A DNA stretch of 40,940 bases, taken from sequence record NC_015719.1; one strand, given 5' to 3'. The translations under genes and the position numbers were made by a program. Below, in pieces: positions 1,110 to 18,252 of the stretch. The notes under the pieces were generated by a model. That model saw nothing but the letters and a program-made list of their open reading frames with translations, was not told the origin of the DNA and did not search any database. Position 1 is the stretch's first letter. Every line of letters begins with the position of its first letter. The stretch is from Escherichia phage K30.

Positions 1110-1460
1110 ATGGAACGTAATGCTAACGCTTACTATGAACTTTTGGCAGCCACTGTTGAAGCATTCAACGAGCACATTCAGTACGATAAACTCACCGAGG
1201 ATGATGACTGGTATGATGCACTGCACGAGGTGGTAGACAGTCATGTTCCGCACTATTACCACGAGATTTTCACGGTGATGGCTGCCGATGGTATTGATCA
1301 CGAGTTCGATGACTCAGATCTCATTCCTGACACCAAGGATGTAAGCCGAATCTGTCAAGCACGCATCTATGAGGCACTCTATAATGACATATTGAACGAC
1401 TCTAGAGTCATCTGGTGTGAGCAGGGTGAAGATGATGAAGAGGACGACTATAATGATTAA
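1110..1460 (+). CDS. ocr: Ocr-like DNA-mimic anti-restriction protein (T7 gene 0.3)
   Basis: 116 aa, very acidic; recalled similarity to T7 Ocr (VPHYY..IF.VMA..GID.EF.DS.L.PDTKDV.RI.QARIYE); first gene after the early promoters. Confidence 0.85.
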   Translation: MERNANAYYELLAATVEAFNEHIQYDKLTEDDDWYDALHEVVDSHVPHYYHEIFTVMAADGIDHEFDDSDLIPDTKDVSRICQARIYEALYNDILNDSRVIWCEQGEDDEEDDYND

Positions 1461-1635
1461 GTATGGCATCACTCAGCAGGACATGCAGGAATACCGCAGC
1501 GCCTTTAAGACCGCTTGCGAGTGCACTGCTGGTATGCCTGAAGCAAAAGCCGACTGGTTCGGCTACTACATGGCCCAAATGGCCCAGACCTATCGCACAC
1601 GCAAGGTAATGTATGATAACCCTGTTCGTAATTAG
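1453..1635 (+). CDS. Hypothetical early protein (gene 0.4-0.6 class)
   Basis: ORF with GAGGA upstream of the ATG; overlaps the ocr stop; no recognised homolog. Confidence 0.4.
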   Translation: MIKYGITQQDMQEYRSAFKTACECTAGMPEAKADWFGYYMAQMAQTYRTRKVMYDNPVRN

Positions 1636-1810
1636 CGTATACGCCCTGATTGTCCTGTACTTTGTGCGGGACTTTCGCAAGGGTCTCAAAGTGCACAAAG
1701 CATCATTCAGTTACCTGAAGTGGGGCTTCTTGCCTCGCTTTACTGTACGGCTGCCTAATGGCCGCTTTAAGGCAAACAAAGTGGGGATATTCTATGTCGC
1801 AACATACTAA
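1613..1810 (+). CDS. Hypothetical small early protein with hydrophobic N-terminus
   Basis: 65-aa ORF; N-terminal ITLFVISVYALIVLYFV suggests a transmembrane helix; AAGG upstream. Confidence 0.3.
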   Translation: MITLFVISVYALIVLYFVRDFRKGLKVHKASFSYLKWGFLPRFTVRLPNGRFKANKVGIFYVATY

Positions 1811-2027
1811 CCTGAAGAAAGCATTCAAGATTGCACGGATGGCGATGGCGTACGGCGCCGGGGAGAGGCGCACAAAGAGAATACTCGCGGCAGGTGCTGG
1901 AAGATTGCCAGCTAGACAACGTAAATGGGTAATGCAGCAAGTATACACGGAGTTATATCACCCTCAGCGTATACCGGATGATTGTATATGGTCATCTGTG
2001 GGCTGGAAACGAGTAGTAATTAACTAA
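1794..2027 (+). CDS. Hypothetical basic early protein
   Basis: ORF track 1758..2027; internal ATG at 1794 has a better-placed purine-rich stretch; start is uncertain. Confidence 0.3.
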   Translation: MSQHTNLKKAFKIARMAMAYGAGERRTKRILAAGAGRLPARQRKWVMQQVYTELYHPQRIPDDCIWSSVGWKRVVIN

Positions 2028-2052
2028 CTAACTAACACAAGGAAACAACCTA

Positions 2053-3057
2053 ATGAACTACACCGACATGCAAGCACGCTTAGACGTCATCCGCAACCTG
2101 CCAATCTGTGAACTTGACAAGCGCCAGCCGCTGCTGGTATCACTCATCGCAAACATCGTGAACTACGAGACGTCTGACGGTGACGATACGGACAGCAATT
2201 GGGGTCTTGAAAGTCAGGGCTACTGGCAAACCTTGAAGATTAAGGCTAAAGACGCTGGGTTTAACCTGCTGGGTAATGGCCACTTCAGCGCGGCGTTTAA
2301 GCACGAGCTACTGCCGGGCAAGGTCATTAAGGTTGGCTTTAAGAAAGAAGACTCAGGGGCCGCCTATGTGGCTTTCTGTCGGATGCACCAAGGTCGGGTA
2401 GGGATACCTAATGTCTATCACGTAGCGCGTCACGCTGGCTGCTATACGGTGGTACTTGATGAGCTGGAACCATGTCAGCGCCGTGATAACCATAAGCACG
2501 ACCATTATGCAGACCTTGCGTATTACTTTGTCGAGGGAGAACCAGACCCAGAGGTATACGCGAAGGATGATCTACCATTCATCGAGACGTGCCAGATGAT
2601 TCGTAAGTTCTTCTACGGGATTGCATCATTTGATATGCATAGTGGCAACATTATGTTTACACCGGATGGTAAACCAGTGATTACCGACCCAGTGTCATTC
2701 TCAGCGGACCGGGACCGCAAGCCTTTCTCGCTGGAGCCTGAGGGCCTGCTCGCAGAGATTGAGCAGATAGCGCACGACAAGATGATTGAACGCTGTAAGC
2801 GTAACAAGGCCAAACGTGACCGTGACAGTACGCTGTGTCGTGCCCGTAGAGCAAACAACAAGGCCCGTAGAAACCGCGCTAAAGCAGCCGCGCGATGGCG
2901 GAAGGAGCGGGAAAAGCGTGTTGCCGAGCGCTTTAAGTATGACCTTGCGAAAATCGAGGAGCGCGTTCTAGCGTGGCAAGTGGGACCCGGCCTAGCAATA
3001 CAACAAGGCAAGCCGCTACCAATCGACAACTACCTTCAAGGTAGACTTATGGGTTAA
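2053..3057 (+). CDS. 0.7: Serine/threonine protein kinase, host shut-off (T7 gene 0.7)
   Basis: 334 aa; recalled strong similarity to T7 gp0.7 (LPICELDKRQ, AGF..LGNGHFSAA, KVGFKKEDSGAAY.AFCRM, FDMHSGNIMF); synteny. Confidence 0.9.
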   Translation: MNYTDMQARLDVIRNLPICELDKRQPLLVSLIANIVNYETSDGDDTDSNWGLESQGYWQTLKIKAKDAGFNLLGNGHFSAAFKHELLPGKVIKVGFKKEDSGAAYVAFCRMHQGRVGIPNVYHVARHAGCYTVVLDELEPCQRRDNHKHDHYADLAYYFVEGEPDPEVYAKDDLPFIETCQMIRKFFYGIASFDMHSGNIMFTPDGKPVITDPVSFSADRDRKPFSLEPEGLLAEIEQIAHDKMIERCKRNKAKRDRDSTLCRARRANNKARRNRAKAAARWRKEREKRVAERFKYDLAKIEERVLAWQVGPGLAIQQGKPLPIDNYLQGRLMG

Positions 3058-3070
3058 CGAGGTGTATCTT

Positions 3071-3094
3071 AGGTGCCTCCACCGCGAGGCACCT
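3071..3094 (+). promoter_or_regulatory. Perfect 9-bp stem-loop upstream of gene 1 (possible R1-type processing site)
   Basis: aggtgcctc / caccgc / gaggcacct read directly; no T-run follows, so not a classic intrinsic terminator. Confidence 0.35.
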
Positions 3095-3144
3095 ATAGAT
3101 AAACTTTATTCACCGCCAGTTTACTGGCACCAAAGAGGCACACA

Positions 3145-5865
3145 ATGAACGCATTAAACATTGCACGTAATGACTTCTCAGAGATTGAACTGGCCGCTAT
3201 TCCGTACAACATCCTCAGTGAGCACTACGGGGACAGACTGGCACGTGAGCAGTTAGCACTGGAGCACGAAGCGTACGAGCTGGGCGAACAGCGTTTCCTG
3301 AAGATGTTAGAACGTCAGGTTAAAGCTGGTGAGTTCGCCGACAACGTGGCCGCTAAGCCGCTGGTCTTAACGCTGCACCCACAGCTAACCAAACGCATCG
3401 ACGATTGGAAGGAGGAGCAAGCAAACGCTCGCGGCAAGAAGCCTCGCGCATACTACCCGATTAAGCACGGCGTTGCCTCAGAGTTAGCCCTTAGCATGGG
3501 AGCTGAGGTACTCAATGAGAAGCGTGGAGTGTCCAGTGAGGCTATCGCACTGCTGACCATTAAGGTCGTCTTAGGGACGCTCACAGACGCCTCTAAAGCC
3601 ACCATCCAGCAAGTATCCTCGCAGTTAGGCAAGGCGCTTGAGGATGAGGCCCGCTTCGGTCGTATCCGTGAGCAGGAGGCTTCCTACTTCAAGAAGAACG
3701 TAGCGGACCAGCTGGACAAGCGTGTGGGTCACGTGTACAAGAAGGCTTTCATGCAGGTCGTCGAGGCCGATATGATTTCCAAGGGGATGCTAGGCGGTGA
3801 CAACTGGTCCAGCTGGAAGACCGACGAGCAGATGCACGTTGGGACCAAGCTACTGGAACTACTCATTGAGGGCACTGGTCTGGTGGAAATGACCAAGAAC
3901 AAGATGGCCGATGGCTCTGACGATGTGACCAGCATGCAAATGGTCCAGCTGGCTCCAGCCTTCGTGGAACTACTGAGTAAACGAGCGGGAGCACTCGCAG
4001 GAATCAGCCCAATGTACCAACCGTGCGTAGTCCCTCCGAAACCTTGGGTTGAAACCGTGGGAGGTGGCTACTGGTCTGTAGGTCGTCGTCCGCTGGCACT
4101 GGTGCGTACCCACTCCAAGAAGGCACTGCGTCGCTACGAAGACGTTCACATGCCAGAGGTATACAAAGCGGTCAACCTCGCGCAGAACACACCGTGGAAG
4201 GTAAACAAGAAGGTACTGGCGGTAGTCAATGAGATTATCAACTGGAAGCACTGCCCGGTGGGTGACGTCCCAGCGATTGAACGCGAAGAGCTACCACCAC
4301 GCCCGGACGATATCGACACCAACGAGGTGGCACGTAAGGCTTGGCGCAAGGAGGCCGCAGCGGTTTACCGTAAGGACAAGGCCCGCCAGTCTCGCCGCTT
4401 GTCGATGGAGTTCATGGTCGCACAGGCCAACAAGTTCGCTAACCACAAGGCCATCTGGTTCCCGTACAACATGGACTGGCGTGGTCGTGTGTACGCTGTG
4501 AGCATGTTTAACCCACAGGGTAATGATATGACCAAGGGTATGCTGACATTGGCCAAAGGTAAGCCAATCGGTCTCGATGGGTTCTACTGGCTGAAGATTC
4601 ATGGTGCAAACTGTGCAGGCGTCGATAAGGTTCCTTTCCCTGAGCGCATCAAGTTCATCGAAGAGAACGAGGCCAACATTCTAGCGAGTGCAGCCGACCC
4701 GCTGAATAACACTTGGTGGACCCAGCAAGATTCACCGTTCTGTTTCTTAGCGTTCTGCTTTGAGTATGCAGGGGTAAAACATCACGGCCTGAATTATAAC
4801 TGTTCGCTGCCACTGGCGTTCGATGGGTCCTGCTCTGGGATTCAGCACTTCAGCGCAATGCTCCGCGATTCTATCGGTGGTCGTGCTGTTAACCTGCTGC
4901 CTTCTGATACCGTGCAGGATATCTACAAGATTGTTGCCGACAAGGTTAATGAGGTACTCCACCAGCACGTTATCAACGGGTCTCAGACGGTGGTCGAGCA
5001 GATTGCTGATAAGGAGACTGGTGAGTTCCGCGAGAAGGTAATGTTGGGCGAGTCTGTACTAGCTGCTCAATGGTTACAATACGGGGTGACCCGCAAGGTG
5101 ACCAAGCGTTCTGTCATGACGTTGGCGTATGGTTCCAAAGAGTTTGGCTTCCGCCAGCAAGTTCTGGAAGATACCATTCAGCCCGCTATCGACAATGGTG
5201 AGGGCCTGATGTTTACGCACCCTAACCAAGCGGCTGGCTACATGGCTAAGCTGATTTGGGACGCTGTGACCGTGACCGTAGTAGCCGCTGTCGAGGCGAT
5301 GAACTGGCTGAAGTCTGCTGCTAAACTGCTTGCCGCTGAAGTCAAGGATAAGAAGACCAAGGAGGTACTTCGTAAGCGTTGCGCAATCCACTGGGTAACA
5401 CCAGATGGCTTCCCAGTGTGGCAAGAGTACCGCAAGCAGAATCAAGCGCGCCTGAAGCTGGTCTTCCTAGGTCAAGCCAACGTTAAGATGACGTACAACA
5501 CCGGGAAGGACTCAGAGATTGACGCTCACAAGCAGGAATCTGGTATCGCTCCTAACTTTGTACACTCGCAAGACGGTAGTCACCTTCGCATGACCGTAGT
5601 ACATGCCAACGAGGTCTACGGGATTGACTCCTTCGCACTCATCCATGACTCCTTCGGGACCATTCCGGCAGACGCTGGGAATCTCTTTAAGGCAGTCCGT
5701 GAGACGATGGTAAAGACCTACGAGGACAACGATGTAATCGCTGACTTCTACAACCAGTTCGCTGACCAGCTGCACGAGTCTCAGCTTGACAAGATGCCAG
5801 CGGTACCAGCCAAAGGTGACCTTAATCTGCGTGATATCTTAGAGTCTGACTTTGCGTTTGCGTAA
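3145..5865 (+). CDS. 1: Single-subunit DNA-directed RNA polymerase (T7 gene 1)
   Basis: 906 aa; colinear recalled similarity to T7 RNAP across the whole length; C-terminal ...ILESDFAFA. Confidence 0.98.
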   Translation: MNALNIARNDFSEIELAAIPYNILSEHYGDRLAREQLALEHEAYELGEQRFLKMLERQVKAGEFADNVAAKPLVLTLHPQLTKRIDDWKEEQANARGKKPRAYYPIKHGVASELALSMGAEVLNEKRGVSSEAIALLTIKVVLGTLTDASKATIQQVSSQLGKALEDEARFGRIREQEASYFKKNVADQLDKRVGHVYKKAFMQVVEADMISKGMLGGDNWSSWKTDEQMHVGTKLLELLIEGTGLVEMTKNKMADGSDDVTSMQMVQLAPAFVELLSKRAGALAGISPMYQPCVVPPKPWVETVGGGYWSVGRRPLALVRTHSKKALRRYEDVHMPEVYKAVNLAQNTPWKVNKKVLAVVNEIINWKHCPVGDVPAIEREELPPRPDDIDTNEVARKAWRKEAAAVYRKDKARQSRRLSMEFMVAQANKFANHKAIWFPYNMDWRGRVYAVSMFNPQGNDMTKGMLTLAKGKPIGLDGFYWLKIHGANCAGVDKVPFPERIKFIEENEANILASAADPLNNTWWTQQDSPFCFLAFCFEYAGVKHHGLNYNCSLPLAFDGSCSGIQHFSAMLRDSIGGRAVNLLPSDTVQDIYKIVADKVNEVLHQHVINGSQTVVEQIADKETGEFREKVMLGESVLAAQWLQYGVTRKVTKRSVMTLAYGSKEFGFRQQVLEDTIQPAIDNGEGLMFTHPNQAAGYMAKLIWDAVTVTVVAAVEAMNWLKSAAKLLAAEVKDKKTKEVLRKRCAIHWVTPDGFPVWQEYRKQNQARLKLVFLGQANVKMTYNTGKDSEIDAHKQESGIAPNFVHSQDGSHLRMTVVHANEVYGIDSFALIHDSFGTIPADAGNLFKAVRETMVKTYEDNDVIADFYNQFADQLHESQLDKMPAVPAKGDLNLRDILESDFAFA

Positions 5866-5875
5866 GGTCTCAGGC

Positions 5876-5898
5876 AATTAGGGCACACTATAGGGAAC
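5876..5898 (+). promoter_or_regulatory. Phage RNAP promoter (phi1.1A-like), aattagggcacactatagggaac
   Basis: Consensus match; followed by AT-rich repeats of acttaaag. Confidence 0.85.
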
Positions 5899-5963
5899 CT
5901 TCGAACGACCGAGGTTTCCATTACTTAAAGTCTTAACTTAAAGAATACTTAAAGAGGCACACC

Positions 5964-6524
5964 ATGACTTACTCAATCGTTGTAACCATCTTGTTAATCA
6001 TCACCACAACGCTCTTCATTGTGAGTCTTCGCAATGCAATACGCAACGAAGAACTATTGGGGCGTTTGATTCAAGAAGCAAACTCCCAGCTTAGTGATGC
6101 GTCGACCAAGGTTCTTCGACTGACGGACAAGGCTAACTTCCTTGGTAAACAGGTGCGTTACTTAGAGAGTGAACTTGAGGAAGAAAAGCAGAAGGTGCTA
6201 GATGTGTACGAACTACGGAAGCGACAGCGGGACCGCATGAAGTTCCTGAGCAAGTCTCTTAAGGAAGCCCAAGATGAGCTGATGATGGTCTCTGACCTGA
6301 TTCACGTTAAGTTCACCGCTGTGTTACCTGATGGCACTCGCTCTAAGACTCTCTTTAAGTTAGGACTTGGACCTTGTGGTCTACACGTTAAGTCCCTTCG
6401 CTGGACTGAGCTAGACGACCGCTATCTGATAGACCAGCTGTGCACCAACGGCGAGCGCAAGCAGTTCACTTACTTTAAGAGCGAAGTAGTAGGGCGTATC
6501 GAGTTCCGCCACGGTAAGGTTTAA
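5964..6524 (+). CDS. Hypothetical membrane-anchored coiled-coil protein (gene 1.05 position)
   Basis: 186 aa; N-terminal hydrophobic helix, heptad-like charged stretch, about 80-aa C-terminal domain; AAAGAGG RBS; sits between two phage promoters. Confidence 0.6.
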   Translation: MTYSIVVTILLIITTTLFIVSLRNAIRNEELLGRLIQEANSQLSDASTKVLRLTDKANFLGKQVRYLESELEEEKQKVLDVYELRKRQRDRMKFLSKSLKEAQDELMMVSDLIHVKFTAVLPDGTRSKTLFKLGLGPCGLHVKSLRWTELDDRYLIDQLCTNGERKQFTYFKSEVVGRIEFRHGKV

Positions 6525-6545
6525 TTAGGGCACACTATCAGGAAC
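6523..6545 (+). promoter_or_regulatory. Variant phage promoter (phi1.1B-like), aattagggcacactatCAggaac
   Basis: Upstream half matches the consensus exactly; the initiation region is TATCAGG instead of TATAGGG. Confidence 0.55.
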
Positions 6546-6547
6546 AT

Positions 6548-6578
6548 ACTCAAGGTCATCGTTCGGTGGCCTTTATGA
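6548..6578 (+). promoter_or_regulatory. RNase III-type processing hairpin (R1.1-like)
   Basis: actcaaggtcatc-gttc-ggtggcctttatga: 9-bp stem with G:U pairs; same conserved flanks as T7 R1.1 (recalled). Confidence 0.6.
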
Positions 6579-6609
6579 ATGTCCCTAACAACCACTCAGG
6601 AGTAACACC

Positions 6610-6786
6610 ATGTATCAGAACACAATCAACTTTGAGCGCAAACGTGAACGTCAGCAGACTGAGGGTTATATCCCTAAGGGCCGCAAGTTGAACAAGACGA
6701 AGCGCGGTGGTGGCATGAAGGGTTCCTTCCGTAATGCGAAGGGCGACAGTGTTGTCAACCAAGAGAAATACTTCGTAGGAGCATAA
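6610..6786 (+). CDS. 1.1: Gene 1.1-like small basic protein
   Basis: 58 aa; shares KGRKLNKTKR with T7 gp1.1 (recalled); GGAG RBS; not in the ORF track because under 60 aa. Confidence 0.6.
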   Translation: MYQNTINFERKRERQQTEGYIPKGRKLNKTKRGGGMKGSFRNAKGDSVVNQEKYFVGA

Positions 6787-6789
6787 CAA

Positions 6790-7056
6790 ATGGCTGAGCA
6801 AACTAAATGGCTGTTCGATGGTAGCACTTCACAGTGGTCACGATTGGGCGCTACCGAACGAAGACTGACGGATGAGACGGGACTACATGTAATCATGACG
6901 TATATCCATTTCAACCGCACAGTTTTACTCTCCGTGTATGAACCAAGACCAGATTATGACGAGGTACTCATAGAGAAATCCTTCAGTCGCTGGTCGATTG
7001 ACTCAGCGTCAGACTGGCTGGCAAAACTCACAGCCGACTACTCAAGTTGGAAGTAA
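6790..7056 (+). CDS. 1.2: Gene 1.2-like protein (candidate host dGTPase inhibitor)
   Basis: 88 aa; position between 1.1 and ligase; weak recalled similarity at the C-terminus (..DW..K..WK). Confidence 0.55.
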   Translation: MAEQTKWLFDGSTSQWSRLGATERRLTDETGLHVIMTYIHFNRTVLLSVYEPRPDYDEVLIEKSFSRWSIDSASDWLAKLTADYSSWK

Positions 7057-7077
7057 TTAGGACACACTATAGGCAGA
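7055..7077 (+). promoter_or_regulatory. Phage RNAP promoter (phi1.3-like), aattaggacacactataggcaga
   Basis: Consensus match; overlaps the gene 1.2 stop. Confidence 0.8.
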
Positions 7078-7110
7078 CTCAAGGTCATCGGATTCCGGTG
7101 GCCTTTATGA
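7077..7110 (+). promoter_or_regulatory. RNase III-type processing hairpin (R1.3-like)
   Basis: actcaaggtcatcgg-att-ccggtggcctttatga; about 11-bp stem. Confidence 0.6.
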
Positions 7111-7156
7111 TTGCTTATTGCACACTAAATAAATACTACACTTCGGAGACATCATC

Positions 7157-8209
7157 ATGATGAACATTACGACTAATCCATATAAAGCCGTTTCATACGT
7201 ACGCTCTGCTATCGAGAAGGCGCTGGAGACTTCCGGTTACCTCATCGCGGACACTAAGCACGATGGTGTACGCGGGAACATTTGCGTAGACAACACGGCC
7301 AACGCAGCGTGGCTAAGCCGGGTCTCAAAGACCATTCCGGCCCTTGAGCACCTCAACGGTTTCGACCAGCGCTGGCAGCAGTTACTGAAAGATGACCGCT
7401 GGATTTTCCCGGATGGCTTCATGCTTGATGGTGAACTCATGGTCAAAGGTGTGGACTTCAACACTGGGTCTGGCCTGCTGCGTACCAAGTGGCTAAAGGC
7501 TACCAACTACGGGTTCGACTTCGGAGGTGTTCCACCACTGAAGGGTAGCAAGGTAGATTTCTGCCTCGACCCTAAGCAACTAAAAGTTGTTCTGTACGAT
7601 ATCATTCCGCTTGACATTATCGAATCCGGTGATGACTACAACGTGATGACCCTCCTCCGCCTTGAGCACGTCAAGGTAGCCTTACCAGTCCTGCAAGACC
7701 ACTTCCCTGAAGTTGAGTGGTGCCTCTCTGAGTCCCATGAAGTTTACGACATGGACGAACTCGATGCGCTGTACCGACAGAAACGAGGAGAAGGTCATGA
7801 AGGTCTGGTGGTTAAGGACCCTCAGGGTATATATAAGCGCGGTAAGAAGTCCGGCTGGTGGAAACTGAAGCCAGAGAATGAGGCTGACGGTGTAGTAGTT
7901 GGTCTCGTGTGGGGCACTCCCGGTAAGGCCAACGAGGGTAAAGTGATTGGCTTCGAGGTTCTCCTTGAGAGTGGTAGAGTGGTTAACGCTACGAACATCT
8001 CACAGGAACTTATGGATGAGTTCACCTCTCGCGTCAAGGAATACACTACCGAGTGTAATGCTAATGAAGCTGGCTGCTGGTATATGAACCCTTACGAGGG
8101 CTGGGCGTGCCAAATCAAGTACATGGAGGAGACTCCAGACGGTTCTCTGCGTCACCCATCGTTCGATAAATGGCGTGGTAGCGAGGCTGACCCAACCATC
8201 AAGATGTAA
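7157..8209 (+). CDS. 1.3: ATP-dependent DNA ligase (T7 gene 1.3)
   Basis: 350 aa; recalled strong similarity to T7 ligase including the adenylation motif region (IKYDGVRG in T7, TKHDGVRG here) and C-terminal ETPDGSLRHPSF. Confidence 0.95.
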   Translation: MMNITTNPYKAVSYVRSAIEKALETSGYLIADTKHDGVRGNICVDNTANAAWLSRVSKTIPALEHLNGFDQRWQQLLKDDRWIFPDGFMLDGELMVKGVDFNTGSGLLRTKWLKATNYGFDFGGVPPLKGSKVDFCLDPKQLKVVLYDIIPLDIIESGDDYNVMTLLRLEHVKVALPVLQDHFPEVEWCLSESHEVYDMDELDALYRQKRGEGHEGLVVKDPQGIYKRGKKSGWWKLKPENEADGVVVGLVWGTPGKANEGKVIGFEVLLESGRVVNATNISQELMDEFTSRVKEYTTECNANEAGCWYMNPYEGWACQIKYMEETPDGSLRHPSFDKWRGSEADPTIKM

Positions 8210-8230
8210 TTAGGACCCACTATAGGAGAC
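8208..8230 (+). promoter_or_regulatory. Phage RNAP promoter, aattaggacccactataggagac
   Basis: Consensus match; overlaps the ligase stop. Confidence 0.8.
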
Positions 8231-8235
8231 ACCAA

Positions 8236-8322
8236 ATGTCTATCGACCTAATTCTAATCATCGTGTTCATCCTCGCGGCTATCGTGTGGTCAATGAACGA
8301 CGAGCCACCTAAAGGAGCATAA
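8236..8322 (+). CDS. Hypothetical 28-aa hydrophobic peptide (MSIDLILIIVFILAAIVWSMNDEPPKGA)
   Basis: Short ORF immediately after a promoter, AGGAGA upstream; single predicted transmembrane segment. Confidence 0.3.
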   Translation: MSIDLILIIVFILAAIVWSMNDEPPKGA

Positions 8323-8325
8323 ACC

Positions 8326-8589
8326 ATGCGCTTACACTTCAATAAATCAAACGGTATCTTCTCGGTTCGCCGGGAAGACCGCAGCACTGTGGTAGCCTCC
8401 GAGCGCCACGGTAAGATTCCACGTATCGGAGACACCTTCGAGCTGGCTCCTCGCGTGCACATCTTGGTTACTCGCGGTCTCTACGAATTGGCTCAGACTA
8501 AGAGCCGTCCTTTCGTACCCGTAGTGGTAACCAAGTGGCCACGCCTTCGTCTATTCTGGGAGCGCATCAAGGAGGTCGTAAATGACTGA
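8326..8589 (+). CDS. 1.6: Gene 1.6-like protein
   Basis: 87 aa; recalled similarity to T7 gp1.6 (MFRLHYNKS...VRRADRS..ASER..KIP...RIKEV); AAAGGAG RBS. Confidence 0.7.
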   Translation: MRLHFNKSNGIFSVRREDRSTVVASERHGKIPRIGDTFELAPRVHILVTRGLYELAQTKSRPFVPVVVTKWPRLRLFWERIKEVVND

Positions 8590-9007
8590 ACATGAAATTC
8601 TAGTGGTGAACCTGCTGGTTGACCAGAATGCTGACCGCCCAGACTCCACGACGTGCTCTGATGGCGTAAAGTGCTACAAGGTAGCGTGCAAGGAGTGTCC
8701 GCTTAATGTCAAAGGAATGACCATTGGGAAGGTGCGTGCAATGCAGGACAGTAAGACTCCAGATGTAGACAATGGTGTCAAGCAGCCAAGTCACTATCAA
8801 CTGTTCGAAGGCGTCGAGGCCATCGAGGTTATTGCTCGAAGCATGACCCAAGAGATGTTCAAAGGGTACTGCCTTGGGAACATCCTCAAGTACCGACTCC
8901 GTGCTGGTAAGAAGTCCGAGCTGGCTACCTTAGAGAAAGACATGGCAAAGGCCGCTTTCTATCTGGAGCTGTATACCAAGCACAAAGGTCTGTGTTATGA
9001 CGCCTAG
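8582..9007 (+). CDS. 1.7: Nucleotide kinase (T7 gene 1.7)
   Basis: 141 aa; C-terminal half matches T7 gp1.7 from memory (PSHY.LF...EAIEVIARSMT.E.FKGYC.GNILKYRLRAGKKSELA.LEKD.AKA.FY.EL); shorter N-terminus than T7. Confidence 0.85.
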   Translation: MTEHEILVVNLLVDQNADRPDSTTCSDGVKCYKVACKECPLNVKGMTIGKVRAMQDSKTPDVDNGVKQPSHYQLFEGVEAIEVIARSMTQEMFKGYCLGNILKYRLRAGKKSELATLEKDMAKAAFYLELYTKHKGLCYDA

Positions 9008-9122
9008 TGAATGGGCAAGAAAGATGTACGAGAAGACGCTCGACCCTGCGTACATCACCATGTATAACATGTGGAAGGAGCGAGAAGATGCAAAAGTTCG
9101 TCGTAACGGTCGAGACAGCTAA
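8997..9122 (+). CDS. 1.8: Gene 1.8-like small protein
   Basis: 41 aa; SEWARKMYEKTLDPAYITMYNMWK resembles T7 gp1.8 SEWCRKMWEETFDDAYIKLYELWK (recalled). Confidence 0.5.
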   Translation: MTPSEWARKMYEKTLDPAYITMYNMWKEREDAKVRRNGRDS

Positions 9123-9237
9123 CGCATCGTATGAACTCCCGGTACACGCTGGGTCTCTTGAGGAGGCCCTCGAAGTTGCCGAGGCAGAGTACGAAGAGTT
9201 AGGCCAAGTGACTCGGGTACGCCCTGATAGTCATTAG
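9088..9237 (+). CDS. 2: Host RNA polymerase inhibitor (T7 gene 2)
   Basis: 49 aa from an internal ATG with AAGGAG RBS; LEEALEVAE...VTRVRP resembles T7 Gp2 (recalled). Confidence 0.7.
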   Translation: MQKFVVTVETANASYELPVHAGSLEEALEVAEAEYEELGQVTRVRPDSH

Positions 9238-9254
9238 GGCACACTATAGGGACA
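9232..9254 (+). promoter_or_regulatory. Phage RNAP promoter (phi2.5-like), cattagggcacactatagggaca
   Basis: Consensus match. Confidence 0.8.
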
Positions 9255-9296
9255 CAGGCTGTCCCTCTTTCTGTTATAAACCAAAGGAGATTCATC

Positions 9297-9992
9297 ATGG
9301 CATTCGCTAAGAAGAAGATTTACACCACCAAGATTGGTACCTGTGAGCCGTACGCTTACTTCAACAAGCCGGACTATGGCGGTGAGGGTTTTGAGAACCC
9401 ACGCGGTACCTACAAAGGTTCCGTAACGTTCAAGAACGAAGACTGTCAGGAGCTGGTAGACCTCATCGTTAAGACCCATGAGGAAAACTACGCTGCTCGT
9501 CTGGAAGCACATGAAGCGAACCCGCCGAAGGTTCAGAAGGGTAAGAAACCTCTGAAGCCGTATGAAGGCGACATGCCATTCTTCGACAATGGTGATGGTA
9601 CAACCACGTTCAACTTCAAGTGCTACGGTTCGTACGAGGACAAGAAAACCGGCGAGACCAAGAAGATTGTTCTGGGTGTAGTTGACGCCAAGGGCAAACG
9701 TATCCAAGATGTTCCAATTATTGGTGGTGGTTCCAAAGTGAAAATTCGCTTCTCTCTGGTACCGTATGGCTGGTCCGCTGTGGCTGGTGCTTCCGTTAAG
9801 TTGCAACTGGAAGGCGTAATGCTGGTCGAACTGGCTACCTTTGGTGGTGGCGAAGACGATTGGGCTGACGAAGCTGTAGAAGGTGGCTATGAAGCTGACG
9901 AATCTCGCAGCCGCAAACCTCAGGAAGACCCGGAAGACTGGTCTGGTGAGGAAGCGGATGAGGGCGAAGCTGAAGAAGACGATGACTTCTAA
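9297..9992 (+). CDS. 2.5: Single-stranded DNA-binding protein (T7 gene 2.5)
   Basis: 231 aa; recalled strong similarity to T7 gp2.5 (EPYAY..KPDYG, KPLKPYEGDMPFFDNGDGTTTF, VPIIGGGSK, acidic C-terminal tail ending DF). Confidence 0.95.
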   Translation: MAFAKKKIYTTKIGTCEPYAYFNKPDYGGEGFENPRGTYKGSVTFKNEDCQELVDLIVKTHEENYAARLEAHEANPPKVQKGKKPLKPYEGDMPFFDNGDGTTTFNFKCYGSYEDKKTGETKKIVLGVVDAKGKRIQDVPIIGGGSKVKIRFSLVPYGWSAVAGASVKLQLEGVMLVELATFGGGEDDWADEAVEGGYEADESRSRKPQEDPEDWSGEEADEGEAEEDDDF

Positions 9993-10441
9993 TGGCTGGC
10001 TACGGAGCCAAAGGGATTCGGAAGGTGGGTGCCTTCCGGTCTGGCCTTGAGGATAAGGTATCCAAGCAGTTAGAATCAAAGGGCGTCACGTTCGACTACG
10101 AATTGTGGCGCATCCCTTACGTTATTCCTGCGAGTGACCACCTTTACACTCCAGACTTCTTGTTACCTAACGGTATCTTCGTGGAGACTAAGGGTCTCTG
10201 GGAAGCCGAGGACCGCAAGAAGCACCTATTGATTCGCGAGCAATACCCGGAGTTAGACATCCGGTTAGTGTTCTCTTCGAGTCGCACTAAGATTTACAAA
10301 GGGTCACCAACCAGTTACGCTGAGTGGTGCGAGAAGCATAACATCTTGTTTGCCGACAAATTGATTCCCGTAGACTGGCTGAAGGAGCCGAAGCGTGATG
10401 TACCGTTCGGCAAGTTCAAACAGAAGAAAGGAGCAAAGTAA
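9992..10441 (+). CDS. 3: Endonuclease I, Holliday junction resolvase (T7 gene 3)
   Basis: 149 aa; N-terminal MAGYGAKGIRKVGAFRSGLEDKVSKQLESKG identical to recalled T7 gp3. Confidence 0.95.
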   Translation: MAGYGAKGIRKVGAFRSGLEDKVSKQLESKGVTFDYELWRIPYVIPASDHLYTPDFLLPNGIFVETKGLWEAEDRKKHLLIREQYPELDIRLVFSSSRTKIYKGSPTSYAEWCEKHNILFADKLIPVDWLKEPKRDVPFGKFKQKKGAK

Positions 10442-10443
10442 GT

Positions 10444-10899
10444 ATGGCTAAGGTTCAATTCACTAAGCGACAGGAGACCTCTCAGATTTTCGTTCACTGC
10501 TCAGCTACCAAGGCGACCATGAATATTGGCGTCCGTGAGATTCGCCAGTGGCACAAGGAGCAGGGCTGGCTGGACGTAGGGTATCACTTCATCATCCGCC
10601 GTGACGGTACCGTTGAGGTAGGTCGAGACCAAGATGCTGTAGGTTCACACGTCAAAGGCTACAACTCGACTTCGGTCGGCGTGTGTTTGGTGGGAGGTAT
10701 CGACGCCAAGGGCAACCCTGAGGCAAACTTCACTCCAGCCCAGATGCAGGCACTGCGTTCACTGTTGGTAGAACTGAAGGTGCAATACGATGGGGCTGTT
10801 CTGATGGCACACCACGATGTAGCACCTAAAGCCTGCCCGAGCTTCGACCTGAAGCGCTGGTGGGAGAAGAATGAACTGGTCACTTCAGACCGTGGGTAA
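10444..10899 (+). CDS. 3.5: Lysozyme / N-acetylmuramoyl-L-alanine amidase, RNAP inhibitor (T7 gene 3.5)
   Basis: 151 aa; recalled near-identity blocks with T7 lysozyme (IFVHCSATK, VREIRQWHKEQGWLDVGYHFII, AHH.VAPKACPSFDLKRWWEKNELVTSDRG). Confidence 0.95.
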   Translation: MAKVQFTKRQETSQIFVHCSATKATMNIGVREIRQWHKEQGWLDVGYHFIIRRDGTVEVGRDQDAVGSHVKGYNSTSVGVCLVGGIDAKGNPEANFTPAQMQALRSLLVELKVQYDGAVLMAHHDVAPKACPSFDLKRWWEKNELVTSDRG

Positions 10900-10900
10900 A

Positions 10901-10923
10901 CATTAGGGCACACTACAGGGAGA
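10901..10923 (+). promoter_or_regulatory. Variant phage promoter (phi4-like), cattagggcacactaCagggaga
   Basis: Consensus match except TACAGGG instead of TATAGGG. Confidence 0.6.
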
Positions 10924-10962
10924 CAATTACGTTTCCCTGTTGTCGCTTGAGGAGATTACTTT

Positions 10963-12897
<1,935 letters not shown>

Positions 12898-12907
12898 GAG
12901 AACCATC

Positions 12908-13117
12908 ATGTTTAAACTCATCGAAACTTTAGGCCGTCTGGTCATCGCGCTGTACATCCGTGAAGCCAAGGCACTGGACAAAGCGTCCAAGGTGGAAGCA
13001 GAAGCAGCCACTAAGCTGGCTAAGGCAGCCGACAAGGCACGTCAGGCATCTCTGGATGCAACCGCAGAGGCAGCGAAAGTTGCACTTAAAGCTCAGAAAC
13101 TTAAGGAGTTCTTCTAA
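12908..13117 (+). CDS. 4.3: Gene 4.3-like protein
   Basis: 69 aa; MFKLIETLGRLVIALY resembles the recalled T7 gp4.3 N-terminus; AGGAGA RBS. Confidence 0.6.
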   Translation: MFKLIETLGRLVIALYIREAKALDKASKVEAEAATKLAKAADKARQASLDATAEAAKVALKAQKLKEFF

Positions 13118-13425
13118 TGACTACCAAAGCTAAATTCCCCGGTAATACCATTCAGCTGTCCGACACTGTAGACCAGTGGGGCCGCAAGGTTCACATCAAC
13201 GTTCGCAACGACAAGGTTACTCTGGTCTACCGCTGGAAGGCTAAGAGCGATAATCGTGCACATACTCAGCGTGTGACACTTGACGATGTTCAAGCAGCTC
13301 GACTACTGGCCTCCGTGGCTGTCGCAGCGACTGTGGCGGTTGGTGAAGATAAGGTGCGTGAGGCTATCCTGAGTAAAGAGGTAGGCTCGACGGCAACCCG
13401 ACTGGCTGAAGCGTCAGAAGCCTAG
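13117..13425 (+). CDS. 4.5: Gene 4.5-like hypothetical protein
   Basis: 102 aa; TAATG overlap with 4.3; call is by position only. Confidence 0.5.
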   Translation: MTTKAKFPGNTIQLSDTVDQWGRKVHINVRNDKVTLVYRWKAKSDNRAHTQRVTLDDVQAARLLASVAVAATVAVGEDKVREAILSKEVGSTATRLAEASEA

Positions 13426-13431
13426 TGATAA

Positions 13432-13467
13432 ACTCAAGGTCATTACTATATGTAGTGGCCTTTATGA
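13432..13467 (+). promoter_or_regulatory. RNase III-type processing hairpin (R4.7-like)
   Basis: actcaaggtcattac-tatat-gtagtggcctttatga; about 11-bp stem. Confidence 0.6.
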
Positions 13468-13500
13468 TTATCATACACAACATATTGAGAGGACATAACC

Positions 13501-13884
13501 ATGCGTAAACCTGAAGAAATCCGTGCAGACATCGAGAAGCTGACCAAAGAGCTGGAAGCTATTAAGGTTCATGAGTCCAGACAGGTTGCTGCTGTTAACA
13601 TCCTGTATAACTTAGGTTGGAAACATGACAACCTTAAGGGTTGGCAGAAGCCTGCTCCGAAGTGTAGCGACTACAAGGCCCCGCTGAAGGCTGGAGAGCT
13701 TGCAACGTTGGAGAAGACTCATTGTATAGGATTATATATCCACAGCGTTGGCAACAAGTTCTCACAGGTGTCTCTCATACGCAACGTAAACATGCGTGGT
13801 GTAGATGTTCTGTCTAGCAGCTTTTTTGTAGAAAACAGTAAGTTGACCGTTCGTCCGCGTGAATACTTCATCGGGCGCCGGTAA
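13501..13884 (+). CDS. 4.7: Gene 4.7-like hypothetical protein
   Basis: 127 aa; GAGAGGA RBS; call is by position only. Confidence 0.5.
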   Translation: MRKPEEIRADIEKLTKELEAIKVHESRQVAAVNILYNLGWKHDNLKGWQKPAPKCSDYKAPLKAGELATLEKTHCIGLYIHSVGNKFSQVSLIRNVNMRGVDVLSSSFFVENSKLTVRPREYFIGRR

Positions 13885-13900
13885 TTAATAGGAGACCACT

Positions 13901-16018
13901 ATGTTAGTAACCGATATCGAGGCGAACAACCTCTTAGAGAAAGTCACTCAGTTCCACTGCGGGGTCATCTATGACTACAGCACGGACGAGTACGTATCGT
14001 ATCGACCTTGGGACTTCTCAGCGTATCTCGATGCGTTGGAAGCTGAGGTGGCTCGTGGTGGTCTCATTGTATTCCACAACGGTCACAAATATGATGCCCC
14101 AGTGTTAACCAAACTGGCCAAGCTCCAGTTAAACAGAGAGTTCCACCTGCCGCGTGAGAACGTAGTGGACACGTTGGTGCTCAGTCGTTTACTGTTTGCG
14201 AACATTAAAGACACCGACATGGCCCTACTGCGTTCCGGTAAGTTACCCGGTAAGCGCTTCGGGTCTCACGCTCTTGAGGCGTGGGGTTACCGCTTAGGCG
14301 AGATGAAGGGCGAGTACAAGGACGACTTCAAGAAGCTCCTTGAGGAACAGGGAGAGGATTACGTGGACGGCGCTGAGTGGATTAGCTTTAACGAGCCGAT
14401 GATGGACTATAACGTTCAGGACGTTGTGGTCACCAAGGCGCTCTTAGAGAAGCTACTTAGTGATAAGCACTACTTCCCGGATGGTGATATCCACTGGTGG
14501 GCGCACGATGCCGTGTCGTTTTGGGGCAACTCCTGTGAGGCCGTATGGCTGGAACACAGAGCCGCTTGGTTACTCGCTAAGCAGGAGCGCAACGGATTCC
14601 CGTTCAACACCAAGGCCATAGAGGAACTCTACGTTGAACTCGCGGGTCGTCGTTCTGAACTCCTTCAGACACTCACCGACACTTTCGGAACTTGGTATCA
14701 ACCTAAGGGCGGTACTGAGTTATTCCTACACCCTCGCACCGGTAAGCCTCTGGGTAAATACCCGCGAGTGAAGTACCCGAAGCAGGGTGGCATCTACAAG
14801 AAACCCAAGAACAAAGCTCAGCGTGAGGGACGTGAACCCTGTGAGCTGGACACTCGGGATTACGTAGAGGGCGCTCCGTATACACCAGTAGAGCACGTTG
14901 TGTTTAACCCAAGTAGTCGAGACCACATTGCTATCAAGCTGAAGGAAGCCGGATGGGTACCTACAGAGTTCACCGAAAAGGGTGCACCTAAGGTAGACGA
15001 CGAGGTCCTTGAGCATGTGCGTGTGGATGACCCTGAGAAGCAGCGCTGCATCGACCTAATCAAAGAGTACCTGATGGTACAGAAGCGTATCGGTCAGGCA
15101 GCTGAGGGAGACAAGGCGTGGCTTCGTTACGTTCAAGAGGATGGTAAAATTCATGGAAGTGTTAACCCTAATGGTGCAGTTACAGGGCGAGCAACGCATA
15201 GCTTCCCTAACCTTGGTCAAGTTCCGGGCGTTCGTTCGCCGTATGGTGAGCCTTGTCGAGCAGCGTTCGGCGCAGAGCATCACTTGGACGGACTTACCGG
15301 AAAGCCTTGGGTTCAAGCGGGTATCGACGCCAGTGGACTCGAACTCCGTTGTCTGGCACACTTCATGTCTAAGTACGACGGAGGGGCATATGCGGATGTT
15401 ATTCTCAACGGTGATATCCACACAGTCAACCAAACGGCGGCTGAGTTGCCAACACGTGATAACGCCAAGACATTCATCTACGGTTTCCTCTATGGTGCTG
15501 GAGACGAAAAGATTGGACAGATTGTGGGAGCAGGTAAGGAACGCGGAAAGGAACTCAAGAAGAAATTCCTTGAGAACACCCCAGCAATCGCAGCCCTGCG
15601 TGAAGGAATCCAACAGACCCTCGTCGAGTCATCCCGATGGGTCGCCGGAGAGCAGAAGGTCAAGTGGAAACGACGTTGGATTAAGGGACTGGATGGAAGA
15701 AAGGTACACGTACGGTCACCACATGCCGCGCTCAACACCCTCCTTCAGTCAGCGGGTGCACTCATTTGTAAGCTGTGGATTGTCGAGACTGAAGAGTTAC
15801 TTCTCAAAGCAGGCTTGAAACACGGCTGGGATGGGGACTTTGCGTACATGGCGTGGGTTCATGATGAAATTCAAGTAGCGTGTCGAACCCCAGAGATTGC
15901 ACAGCAGGTTATCGACACTGCGCAACAAGCTATGCGCAACGTTGGGGAACACTTTAAGTTCCGTTGCCGTCTGGATACAGAAGGTAAGATGGGTCCTAAC
16001 TGGGCCGTATGTCACTAA
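13901..16018 (+). CDS. 5: DNA polymerase (T7 gene 5)
   Basis: 705 aa; recalled extensive identity with T7 gp5 (DIEAN.LLE, HNGHKYD, YGFLYGAGDEKIG, C-terminal GKMGPNWA.CH). Confidence 0.98.
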   Translation: MLVTDIEANNLLEKVTQFHCGVIYDYSTDEYVSYRPWDFSAYLDALEAEVARGGLIVFHNGHKYDAPVLTKLAKLQLNREFHLPRENVVDTLVLSRLLFANIKDTDMALLRSGKLPGKRFGSHALEAWGYRLGEMKGEYKDDFKKLLEEQGEDYVDGAEWISFNEPMMDYNVQDVVVTKALLEKLLSDKHYFPDGDIHWWAHDAVSFWGNSCEAVWLEHRAAWLLAKQERNGFPFNTKAIEELYVELAGRRSELLQTLTDTFGTWYQPKGGTELFLHPRTGKPLGKYPRVKYPKQGGIYKKPKNKAQREGREPCELDTRDYVEGAPYTPVEHVVFNPSSRDHIAIKLKEAGWVPTEFTEKGAPKVDDEVLEHVRVDDPEKQRCIDLIKEYLMVQKRIGQAAEGDKAWLRYVQEDGKIHGSVNPNGAVTGRATHSFPNLGQVPGVRSPYGEPCRAAFGAEHHLDGLTGKPWVQAGIDASGLELRCLAHFMSKYDGGAYADVILNGDIHTVNQTAAELPTRDNAKTFIYGFLYGAGDEKIGQIVGAGKERGKELKKKFLENTPAIAALREGIQQTLVESSRWVAGEQKVKWKRRWIKGLDGRKVHVRSPHAALNTLLQSAGALICKLWIVETEELLLKAGLKHGWDGDFAYMAWVHDEIQVACRTPEIAQQVIDTAQQAMRNVGEHFKFRCRLDTEGKMGPNWAVCH

Positions 16019-16036
16019 TAATACAGGAGATTTACC

Positions 16037-16339
16037 ATGGCTATTACCAAACGTTTTAAAGTTACTTTCGAAGTGACCACCGTAATTGACAGCGAAGCTG
16101 AGAAGAACCTAAGCGAGTCCGTTCTGCGTATTGCACATATGGTTTCCAAAGGTGAGAAGGTGGACAGCTTCAAGCTGGGTTTCCTTGAGGCAGCACTCAA
16201 TGGTGGACCTGACGAAGCAGCTACGTACTGTATCCGACATGGTCTACGTTCATTGGTCAAAGAGGCCTATAACGACCTTTCGTTTAACGAGAAGAAACTT
16301 ATGCGATTCTCCCCGGCAACCGTGAGGGTAACCAAGTGA
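16037..16339 (+). CDS. 5.5: Gene 5.5 protein (H-NS-binding in T7)
   Basis: 100 aa; recalled similarity to T7 gp5.5 (TKRFKV.F.VT.VIDS, RFSPATVR). Confidence 0.8.
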   Translation: MAITKRFKVTFEVTTVIDSEAEKNLSESVLRIAHMVSKGEKVDSFKLGFLEAALNGGPDEAATYCIRHGLRSLVKEAYNDLSFNEKKLMRFSPATVRVTK

Positions 16340-16545
16340 GTGAGTACCTCAAAGTTCTGGCGGCCCTCAAGGGCTGCCCTAAGTCCTTCCAGTCGAACTA
16401 CGTGCGGAACAACGCTACGTTAGTCGCGGAGGCCGCTTCCCGTGGTCACATTTCGTGTCTGACCATGAGTGGTCGTAATGGCGGCGCTTGGGAAATTACC
16501 AGTGCCGGAGTGAGATTCCTTAAGAAACACGGGGGTTGTTTATGA
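16336..16545 (+). CDS. 5.7: Gene 5.7 protein
   Basis: 69 aa; GTG start overlapping the 5.5 stop; recalled near-identity with T7 gp5.7 (CPK.FQSNYVRNNA.LVAEAASRGHISCLT.SGRNGGAWEIT). Confidence 0.8.
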   Translation: MSEYLKVLAALKGCPKSFQSNYVRNNATLVAEAASRGHISCLTMSGRNGGAWEITSAGVRFLKKHGGCL

Positions 16546-16706
16546 GTAACGTCACCATTAGTTCAGACCGCCTTAAATACTTAGAGAGTCGGGACGAAAT
16601 CCTGAGCGCTCTTGAGGCAGGCGGCGTAGATAACTGGGAGTGGTACTCAGAGTCGTTGCAGAAAGCAGGGCTTCTGGATGACGATGAGGAGGAAGACGAT
16701 GAGTAA
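16542..16706 (+). CDS. 5.9: Gene 5.9-like small acidic protein (candidate RecBCD inhibitor)
   Basis: 54 aa, acidic C-terminus; position between 5.7 and 6; call is by synteny. Confidence 0.5.
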   Translation: MSNVTISSDRLKYLESRDEILSALEAGGVDNWEWYSESLQKAGLLDDDEEEDDE

Positions 16707-18251: not shown

Positions 18252-18252
18252 C

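Follow-up and report, generated by a model that had tools for sequence, protein, structure and literature searches.

The window analysed in this work, i.e., the whole 40,940-nucleotide sequence of Escherichia phage K30 (NC_015719.1), is, according to BLAST and gene-by-gene comparison, a complete Przondovirus genome belonging to the Klebsiella KP32/K11 group. Its segment 1110–16706 very probably represents the class I/II gene block (early genes and genes of DNA metabolism) of a phage of the KP32/K11 type, equipped with the usual T7-style host-takeover genes; this reading is based on the colinear gene order, the identity of the RNA polymerase, and the positions of the promoters, all of which match those of K11. 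A preliminary description of the segment, obtained from the sequence alone, had recognised in it multiple anti-host and anti-defence functions and the apparent absence of T7 genes 3.8 and 7, and both observations have been confirmed. The gene set is ordinary for the genus, has already been annotated in relatives, and offers little beyond routine genome annotation. Two points are of some value: the Klebsiella-type protein encoded at the 1.2 position is a real Gp1.2 homologue devoid of the known inhibitory plug, and the gp5.9 label attached to the small acidic proteins with the motif GGVDNWEWY, one of which is encoded at the end of the segment, lacks the backing of a detectable homology. Knowing which anti-defence genes are truly carried by a Klebsiella phage helps phage therapy and host-range prediction.

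The left 20 kb of the window matched 1087 phage records, 330 of which, mostly from Klebsiella phages, cover at least 80% of the query; the best DNA match was Klebsiella phage VLCpiA3d (Przondovirus), with 94.6% identity. All the plus-strand open reading frames (ORFs) of the window were compared, by BLASTP/tblastn, with reference proteins from the annotated left halves of VLCpiA3d, T7, T3, KP32, and K11. This comparison sufficed for most genes and was blind to any relation of the 1.2-like and 5.9-slot proteins to those of T7. The ORFs listed in the preliminary description all exist and lie on the plus strand, and the protein comparison with T7, T3, K11, and KP32 that it had proposed places the window in the KP32/K11 group. 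The order of the genes is colinear with that of K11, and the gene-by-gene identity agrees with K11, KP32, and VLCpiA3d; these three phages (Przondovirus, Autographiviridae) share with the window the same gene order from 0.3 to 8, K11-type promoters in the same places, and the lack of gene 7. In K11, the RNA polymerase and the products of genes 2.5, 3, 4, and 6 are 97–99.6% identical to those of the window, and the DNA polymerase is 95.8% identical. The gene for the phage RNA polymerase is the following:

3145–5865, plus strand: phage RNA polymerase (gene 1); identity 98.2% to K11, 73.5% to T7, and 73.4% to T3.

K11-type promoters are found at the equivalent intergenic positions (335, 5876, 6523, 7055, 8208, 9232, 10901, 17712, 20131, and onward). 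Following the T7/K11 paradigm, the early genes would be read by the host RNA polymerase and the remainder by the K11-type phage RNA polymerase from these promoters.

The anti-host and anti-defence functions are represented, first of all, by Ocr, the 0.7 kinase, Gp2, and the lysozyme, which BLAST and Pfam/PHROG searches confirmed as homologues of the T7 proteins (48–79% identity, with Pfam or PHROG matches):

1110–1460, plus strand: Ocr (gp0.3), 116 amino acids; 47.7% identity to T7 gp0.3 (E 1e-32); PF08684; PHROG 2568.
2053–3057, plus strand: gp0.7, Ser/Thr protein kinase/host shut-off, 334 amino acids; 49.9% identity to T7 gp0.7 and 85.6% to K11; PHROG 2828.
9088–9237, plus strand: Gp2, host RNA polymerase inhibitor, 49 amino acids; 52% identity to T7 Gp2 and 98% to K11; PF16857.
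10444–10899, plus strand: gp3.5 lysozyme/amidase; 79.5% identity to T7 gp3.5.

The window Ocr scores 100 bits against the PF08684 model (cut-off 25) and contains 33 acidic (D/E) and six basic (K/R) residues, with an isoelectric point (pI) of 4.05; the T7 protein contains 34 and six, respectively, with the same pI, so that the acidity is DNA-like in both. The two proteins have in common 48% identity, length, charge, the PF08684 family, and the position as first early gene, whereas the sequence of the C-terminal acidic tail is not the same. By analogy with its T7 homologue, this protein would be a DNA mimic blocking Type I restriction–modification and bacteriophage exclusion (BREX). The similarity of gp0.7 to the T7 protein is full-length (49.9% over 359 alignment columns), with a PHROG 2828 match at E 1.6e-169 and no matching Pfam model; the protein would act as a kinase and host shut-off factor, as in T7. 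Gp2 is 49 amino acids long when read from its ATG start rather than as the longer GTG ORF; it belongs to PF16857 (62 bits, cut-off 27), its C-terminal VTRVRP is identical to that of T7, and it would block the host RNA polymerase. Membership of gp3.5 in the lysozyme family is indicated by the retention of the His/Cys-containing segments FVHCSAT and AHH.VAPKACPSF; like its T7 homologue, it would have amidase activity and, in addition, regulate the phage RNA polymerase.

Homologues of T7 genes 0.4, 4.5, 5.5, and 5.7, which had escaped the preliminary description, are also present:

1453–1635, plus strand: gp0.4-like protein, 60 amino acids; 98% identity to VLCpiA3d gp03 and 50% to K11 gp0.4; PHROG 5058.
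13117–13425, plus strand: gp4.5 homologue; 56% identity to T7 gp4.5; PF17574 ('inhibitor of toxin/antitoxin system'), 87.6 bits.
16037–16339, plus strand: gp5.5 homologue (family annotated as H-NS inhibitor); 45% identity to T3, 35% to K11, and 31% to T7; PF11247, 35 bits; PHROG 1452.
16336–16545, plus strand: gp5.7 homologue; 79.7% identity to T7 gp5.7.

The gp0.4-like gene, which overlaps the 3' end of ocr by eight nucleotides, can be linked to T7 gp0.4 because of reciprocal matches between PHROGs 5058 and 7202: T7 gp0.4 matches PHROG 5058 at E 9e-5, and the T7 and K11/window types cross-match the two families with E values of about 1e-4. The T7 protein is an FtsZ inhibitor (as cited in PMC7617805). 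By homology with T7, these four proteins would be further host-takeover factors. The gp5.5 protein is nearer to that of T3 (45%) than to those of K11 (35%) or KP32 (34%), and the neighbouring gene 5 and 5.7 products are about 96% identical to K11; the gp5.5 region appears to be a local mosaic exchange. It must be considered, as a point against the host-takeover reading of the whole block, that all the assigned functions are putative and rest on homology. A scan of ten early proteins against NCBIfam gave nothing useful.

Two of the T7-like labels call for caution. The first concerns the protein encoded between genes 1.1 and 1.3, which the preliminary description had considered gene 1.2-like (a dGTPase inhibitor in T7):

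6790–7056, plus strand: Klebsiella-type Gp1.2 homologue, 88 amino acids; 70% identity to K11 gp1.2; PHROG 6515.

BLAST disclosed no similarity between this protein and the T7 and T3 gp1.2 sequences, which fall in a different family (PHROG 2949). A relatedness to T7 Gp1.2 was found at the profile and fold level. An exhaustive profile search seeded by T7 and T3 gp1.2 returned 44 matches at E ≤ 0.001; 40 of them were taken as T7-type relatives, giving a T7-type alignment of 42 sequences, and some look like bridges between the two types, as in the case of P0200, ending in ...YEPRGS...AAAYESWK. When the Klebsiella-type family was compared with this alignment, hhalign assigned a probability of 96.6% (E 5.9e-10) over 62 columns extending to the shared C-terminal W-K, and the merged alignment of the two types is colinear from end to end. 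The AlphaFold2 (AF2) model (predicted local distance difference test, pLDDT, 74) contains a helix at residues 14–30, strands at 33–39, 44–52, and 57–66, and a second helix at 70–87, i.e., an alpha-beta3-alpha arrangement, which is also the topology of the nuclear magnetic resonance structure of T7 Gp1.2 (alpha-beta-beta-beta-alpha; PMC9478638). A Foldseek search of the PDB with this model retrieved T7 Gp1.2 itself as the top match (chain 7u65_G, from the complex with Dgt) and again as the third one (7u66_G), with template modelling (TM) scores of 0.61–0.66.

On the basis of the hhalign score, the colinear alignment, the predicted topology, and the Foldseek match, the 1.2-position protein is a true, if distant, homologue of Gp1.2, with what is predicted to be the same fold. 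It shares with T7 Gp1.2 (PDB 2MDP and 7U65–7U66; PF10922) the slot between genes 1.1 and 1.3, a length of 85–88 amino acids, the alpha-beta3-alpha fold, the C-terminal W-L...W-K, and an L-(Y/F)-x-G segment; it differs in that the identity is about 19%, PF10922 is not matched, Arg3 is replaced by Trp behind a four-residue N-terminal extension, and the DxDVL loop is shorter.

Several points weigh against the assignment of a Gp1.2 function. The protein has no match to PF10922 at E ≤ 1, vs. 206.8 bits for T7 Gp1.2 and 49 bits for that of T3; a hidden Markov model (HMM) of its family retrieved no relevant chain among the PDB sequences; and the alignment supplied to AF2 contained T7-type sequences, which might have biased the model toward the Gp1.2 fold. 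The main difference concerns the N-terminus. In the T7 protein, inhibition is exerted by the N-terminus, which enters the active site of Dgt; the triphosphate is displaced there by the Gly2 amino group, which is free, and by the Arg3 side chain (PMC9478638). This Gly2-Arg3 plug is not conserved in the window protein, whose N-terminus reads MAEQTKWLFDGST: in its place there is MAEQTKW, with W7 aligned to R3 and a four-residue extension before it. The relationship proposed in the preliminary description has been retained, in a form that escapes BLAST and PF10922 and is accompanied by a different N-terminus; the outcome that would have refuted it according to that description, i.e., homology searches showing the ORF to be unrelated to the T7 protein, did not occur for this gene.

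It could be argued that the protein has kept the Gp1.2 fold and has lost, or has never had, the ability to inhibit a dGTPase, its conserved N-terminus (LFDGSTSQWSRLG) serving another partner. The replacement of the plug would agree with this, as would the lack of a PF10922 match, the DxDVL region, which in the alignment is four residues shorter than in T7 Gp1.2, and the narrowness of the family, which consists of 59 clusters of Klebsiella-phage-like sequences, none with an identity below 60%. Moreover, the experimental evolution of another Klebsiella phage gave rise to a deletion removing the annotated dGTPase inhibitor, a gene that the authors judged unnecessary on the available hosts (bioRxiv 10.1101/2024.10.29.620800). 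However, the profile- and fold-level homology to Gp1.2 is strong, the slot between 1.1 and 1.3 is conserved, and the segment L-F-D-G-S aligns with the T7 contact residues L4-Y5-S6-G7-N8, the glycine being near-invariant in both groups. Klebsiella, in turn, encodes a Dgt orthologue. For these reasons, a lack of dGTPase inhibition, whether lost or never present, is considered a serious but rather doubtful alternative. The homologous, Gp1.2-like protein most likely binds a host deoxynucleoside triphosphate (dNTP) triphosphohydrolase, even though its mode of inhibition, and even its target, are uncertain because the Gly2-Arg3 plug is absent; the label 'dGTPase inhibitor' goes beyond the sequence evidence.

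The second of these labels concerns the acidic protein encoded between genes 5.7 and 6, indicated in the preliminary description as 5.9-like:

16542–16706, plus strand: acidic protein of the 5.9 slot, 54 amino acids; PF25708, 63.1 bits (cut-off 24.5); PHROG 6234; GGVDNWEWY group.

Read from its ATG, the protein contains 17 acidic and four basic residues (pI 4.05); the start of the ORF overlaps the stop of 5.7 (ATGA), and its stop overlaps the probable start of gene 6 at 16699. In the strongest form of the 5.9-like reading, it would be the orthologue of T7 gp5.9, that is, a dimeric coiled-coil DNA mimic blocking the DNA-binding site of RecBCD. T7 gp5.9, known as an inhibitor of RecBCD and MukBEF, occupies the same slot, is of similar size (52 vs. 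54 amino acids) and acidity (pI 4.08 vs. 4.05), and also passes the cut-off of PF25708 ('Phage T7 gp5.9 RecBCD inhibitor'), with 27.8 bits. The two proteins have in common an N-terminal V-T-I-(S/P) segment, corresponding to the region of gp5.9 that forms the dimer-bracing beta-sheet (PMC9836394), and some relatives of the window protein have been annotated as 'host RecBCD nuclease inhibitor'.

Beyond slot, size, charge, and Pfam family, however, no homology could be detected. BLAST and local pairwise alignment of the window protein with T7 gp5.9 gave nothing, leaving the helical body without any detectable similarity. In the hhalign comparisons, the probability was 1% with T7 gp5.9 as a single sequence and 39%, over 15 columns, with its family, the aligned part being limited to 13–15 N-terminal columns around V-T-I. 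T7 gp5.9 scores 1.8 bits against the 50-sequence profile of the window family, the reverse comparison gave at most 6.6 bits, and the two proteins are assigned to different PHROGs (6234 and 9014). The window-family profile did not find the gp5.9 chain among the PDB sequences at E ≤ 10. The window family is composed of 92 clusters, and its motif L..L.AGGVDNWEWY, invariant over 50 homologues, is missing from T7 gp5.9; the narrow T7-type family comprises 12 clusters, half of them without a PF25708 call. It was also observed that PF25708, though named for T7 gp5.9, is dominated by GGVDNWEWY-type proteins, with T7 gp5.9 itself exceeding the cut-off only by a small margin.

The predicted structure would point in the same direction: the AF2 monomer (pLDDT 78) is modelled as a helix at residues 8–26, a break at the invariant G27-G28, a second helix at 29–41, and a disordered acidic tail. 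The solved gp5.9, a protein reported to be specific for RecBCD, forms a long coiled coil of the parallel type, with a bracing beta-sheet at the N-terminus (PMC9836394). The distribution of the family is much wider as well. The homologues were found in 121 phage records: 75 from Pseudomonas (many of them Pakpunavirus), 29 from Klebsiella, six from Bacillus, four from Acinetobacter, three from Xanthomonas, and one from Streptomyces. Bacillus and Streptomyces use AddAB or AdnAB and are not known to use RecBCD. Given that their phages carry homologues and that gp5.9 is reportedly specific for RecBCD, a strictly RecBCD-directed family is disfavoured. In the literature on Klebsiella phages, the label of RecBCD inhibitor turned up in genome-description papers only. 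Taken as a whole, this makes the orthology with gp5.9 unlikely.

Three findings, i.e., the failure of independent profiles to connect the protein with T7 gp5.9, the occurrence of homologues in Bacillus and Streptomyces phages, and the outcome of Foldseek, also weigh against counting the protein among the T7-style takeover factors; the last one, with no PDB matches for the 54-residue model and its own family only in BFVD, carries little weight for so small a protein.

A different explanation, to which we give nearly even chances, is that the protein belongs to a separate family of small acidic proteins merged with gp5.9 by Pfam, having another conserved host target or a general DNA-mimic surface rather than RecBCD specifically. 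The invariance of the aromatic GGVDNWEWY segment over 50 diverse homologues, the spread of the family as far as Pakpunavirus, Acinetobacter, and Xanthomonas phages, and the lack of cross-detection with the T7 gp5.9 family would fit this possibility. Furthermore, the 5.9 slot of Przondovirus accommodates unrelated alternatives: it is occupied by the 54-residue protein in the window, by orf27 (68 amino acids) in K11, and by gp25 (127 amino acids) in VLCpiA3d, and these types were found in 29, 73, and 62 Klebsiella records, respectively. On the other hand, Pfam curators place the family together with gp5.9, the acidic tail and the low pI are typical of DNA mimics, and even in MUD8-T1, a distant Pradovirus of Xanthomonas, a homologue immediately precedes an exonuclease gene, as is the case with gene 6 here; this adjacency makes a link to DNA-end metabolism plausible. 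The neighbourhoods of the homologues in Pakpunavirus and in a Bacillus phage contain hypothetical genes only and are uninformative.

Hence, the 5.9-slot protein is not demonstrably a homologue of T7 gp5.9, its putative RecBCD inhibition being a label derived from slot and composition, and the designation 'RecBCD nuclease inhibitor' goes beyond the sequence evidence for the GGVDNWEWY family as a whole. The protein most likely acts in the manner of a DNA mimic, inhibiting a host factor that processes DNA ends or binds DNA. We tentatively consider, as a broader idea that falls somewhat short of an even chance, that the widespread GGVDNWEWY family, found in Autographiviridae and Pakpunavirus as well as in Bacillus, Acinetobacter, and Streptomyces phages, is not homologous to gp5.9 and has a different or broader host target, and that, likewise, the Klebsiella-type Gp1.2 may have acquired a new N-terminus for another dNTPase. 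The question has a practical side, in that both this label and that of 'dGTPase inhibitor' on the Klebsiella-type 1.2 protein spread via annotation pipelines.

As regards the absent genes, the tblastn search of the whole window with T7 gp2.8, 3.8, 5.3, 7, and 7.7, T3 gp5.3, and the KP32 HNH protein gp09 gave nothing significant; the best E value, 0.01, was obtained with T3 gp5.3, on the wrong strand within gene 4, and T7 gp5.3 had no match. For T7 gp7, the best E value was 0.5, away from the 6.7/7.3 junction. Neither of the two junctions contains the missing gene. In the case of the 3.8 position, the 179 bases between the stop of the lysozyme gene (10899) and the start of gene 4 (11079) contain only a K11-type promoter and a 39-codon ORF:

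10901–10923, plus strand: phage promoter, phi3.8-equivalent; CATTAGGGCACACTACAGGGAGA, identical to the K11 promoter at K11 10908–10930.
10963–11082, plus strand: gene for a hydrophobic peptide of 39 amino acids (single-pass membrane type); PHROG 13077, E 2e-24; GAGGAG Shine-Dalgarno; ATGA overlap with gene 4.

The shortness of this ORF, the absence of a Pfam match, and the fact that it is un-annotated in some records might suggest that it has arisen by chance in the leader separating the promoter from gene 4 and is not a gene. This is highly improbable, as the peptide is full-length in 296 of the 297 matching phage records (289 from Klebsiella phages), with 55–95% protein identity; it matches a PHROG family, has a ribosome-binding site and an overlap with gene 4, and it is kept upstream where an HNH gene has been inserted. 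It appears, therefore, to be a resident gene, probably translationally coupled to gene 4.

The preliminary description had seen this membrane peptide as sitting in the place of the HNH endonuclease. Such a replacement was rejected, because the two coexist in phages Amrap and SH-Kp 152234, where the peptide ORF and gene 4 are separated by an HNH gene of 121 codons (at 1620–1985 in the Amrap sequence, L006, and at 1617–1982 in that of SH-Kp 152234, L007). The Amrap HNH protein is 79% identical to T7 gp3.8, a value exceeding those of most of the small early proteins in the comparison with T7 and in keeping with a recent horizontal transfer of this homing endonuclease from one genus to another; about 87 records carry an HNH copy at least 90% identical to that of Amrap. 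The absence of the HNH genes 2.8, 3.8, 5.3, and 7.7 reflects the optional, mobile nature of homing endonucleases.

At the second junction, the flanking genes are immediately adjacent:

18030–18513, plus strand: genes 6.7 (18030–18251) and 7.3 (18253–18513); 97% and 93% identity to K11 gp6.7 and gp7.3.

With the last base of 6.7 at 18251 and the first of 7.3 at 18253, there is no room for gene 7. Homologues of T7 gene 7 were found in 206 records; phages of Escherichia, Yersinia, and Salmonella come first, and Klebsiella is not among the organism names listed. Gene 7 is absent from T3, K11, KP32, and VLCpiA3d, which are also without an HNH gene at the 3.8 position. The suggestion that these absences help to place the phage relative to the T7 and T3 lineages was not upheld, and their use as a lineage marker was rejected: the 3.8 HNH gene carries no lineage signal because it varies within the genus as an optional mobile insert, and gene 7 is lacking in all four of the related phages examined.

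Other slots of the block differ among the relatives. The 0.3 slot contains Ocr in the window and in VLCpiA3d, vs. an S-adenosylmethionine (SAM) hydrolase-type protein in K11 and KP32; the Klebsiella phage records contain Ocr less often (126 records) than the K11 SAM hydrolase-type protein (287 records), which makes Ocr the minority allele. In other words, the phage carries the Ocr allele, not the commoner SAM hydrolase type, together with one of at least three interchangeable genes of the 5.9 slot. In KP32, the ligase gene is followed by an HNH gene, where the window has none, and gene 5 is closely followed by a PD-(D/E)XK gene, located before 5.5. T3 shares with the window the lack of 7, 7.7, 3.8, and 2.8 and the presence of relatives of 0.6, 0.65, and 1.05, and its gp5.5 is the closest to that of the window (45%); unlike the window, it harbours a SAM hydrolase-type 0.3, the 5.3 HNH gene, a true gp5.9, and another small ORF at 3.7.

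The remaining genes of the block are listed below:

1613–1810, plus strand: gp0.6-like protein, 65 amino acids; 92% identity to K11 gp0.6A and 65% to T3 gp0.6; PHROG 2385.
1794–2027, plus strand: gp0.65-like protein, 77 amino acids from an internal ATG; PHROG 23914; T3 gp0.65, E 4e-5.
5964–6524, plus strand: gp1.05 'fusion protein', 186 amino acids; 81% identity to K11 gp1.05; PF25755, 90.6 bits, residues 112–182.
6610–6786, plus strand: gp1.1, 58 amino acids; PF08200, 35 bits; 96.6% identity to K11 gp1.1.
7157–8209, plus strand: DNA ligase (gene 1.3); 67.7% identity to T7 and 82% to K11.
8582–9007, plus strand: gp1.7 nucleotide-kinase homologue, 141 amino acids; 54% identity to residues 42–195 of T7 gp1.7; PF11753, 82 bits.
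11079–12809, plus strand: primase/helicase (gene 4); 98.4% identity to K11 and 72% to T7.
13901–16018, plus strand: DNA polymerase (gene 5), followed directly by 5.5; 85% identity to T7.
16699–17604 (likely start 16699), plus strand: exonuclease (gene 6); 97% identity to K11 gp6, aligned from residue 2 at 16705.

The gp0.6-like protein shows no similarity to T7 gp0.6A. In the gp0.65-like ORF, the full 77-position profile of PHROG 23914 aligned to residues 13–89. The gp1.05 protein has a hydrophobic N-terminus, a middle region with weak Pfam matches of the coiled-coil type, and a C-terminal T3 1.05 domain (PF25755); it is found in K11 and KP32, and VLCpiA3d annotates no gene at that position. 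The gp1.7 protein is N-terminally shorter than that of T7, and its length varies among the relatives (161 amino acids in K11, 143 in KP32, and 118 in VLCpiA3d). Upstream of ocr, at 724–888, there is a conserved ORF of 54 amino acids (PHROG 16783, E 2.5e-40); at the same position, VLCpiA3d has a 112-amino-acid helix-turn-helix protein (Pfam HTH_23) without a counterpart in the window.

The right half of the genome contains standard structural genes only, with no room for others. Lastly, bases 1–393 recur exactly at 40548–40940, so that the unique length of the genome is 40,547 bases. This 393-base repeat may represent a direct terminal repeat, in which case it would exceed that of K11 (180 bp), or else an assembly overlap; it carries copies of a phage promoter at 335–357 and 40882–40904.

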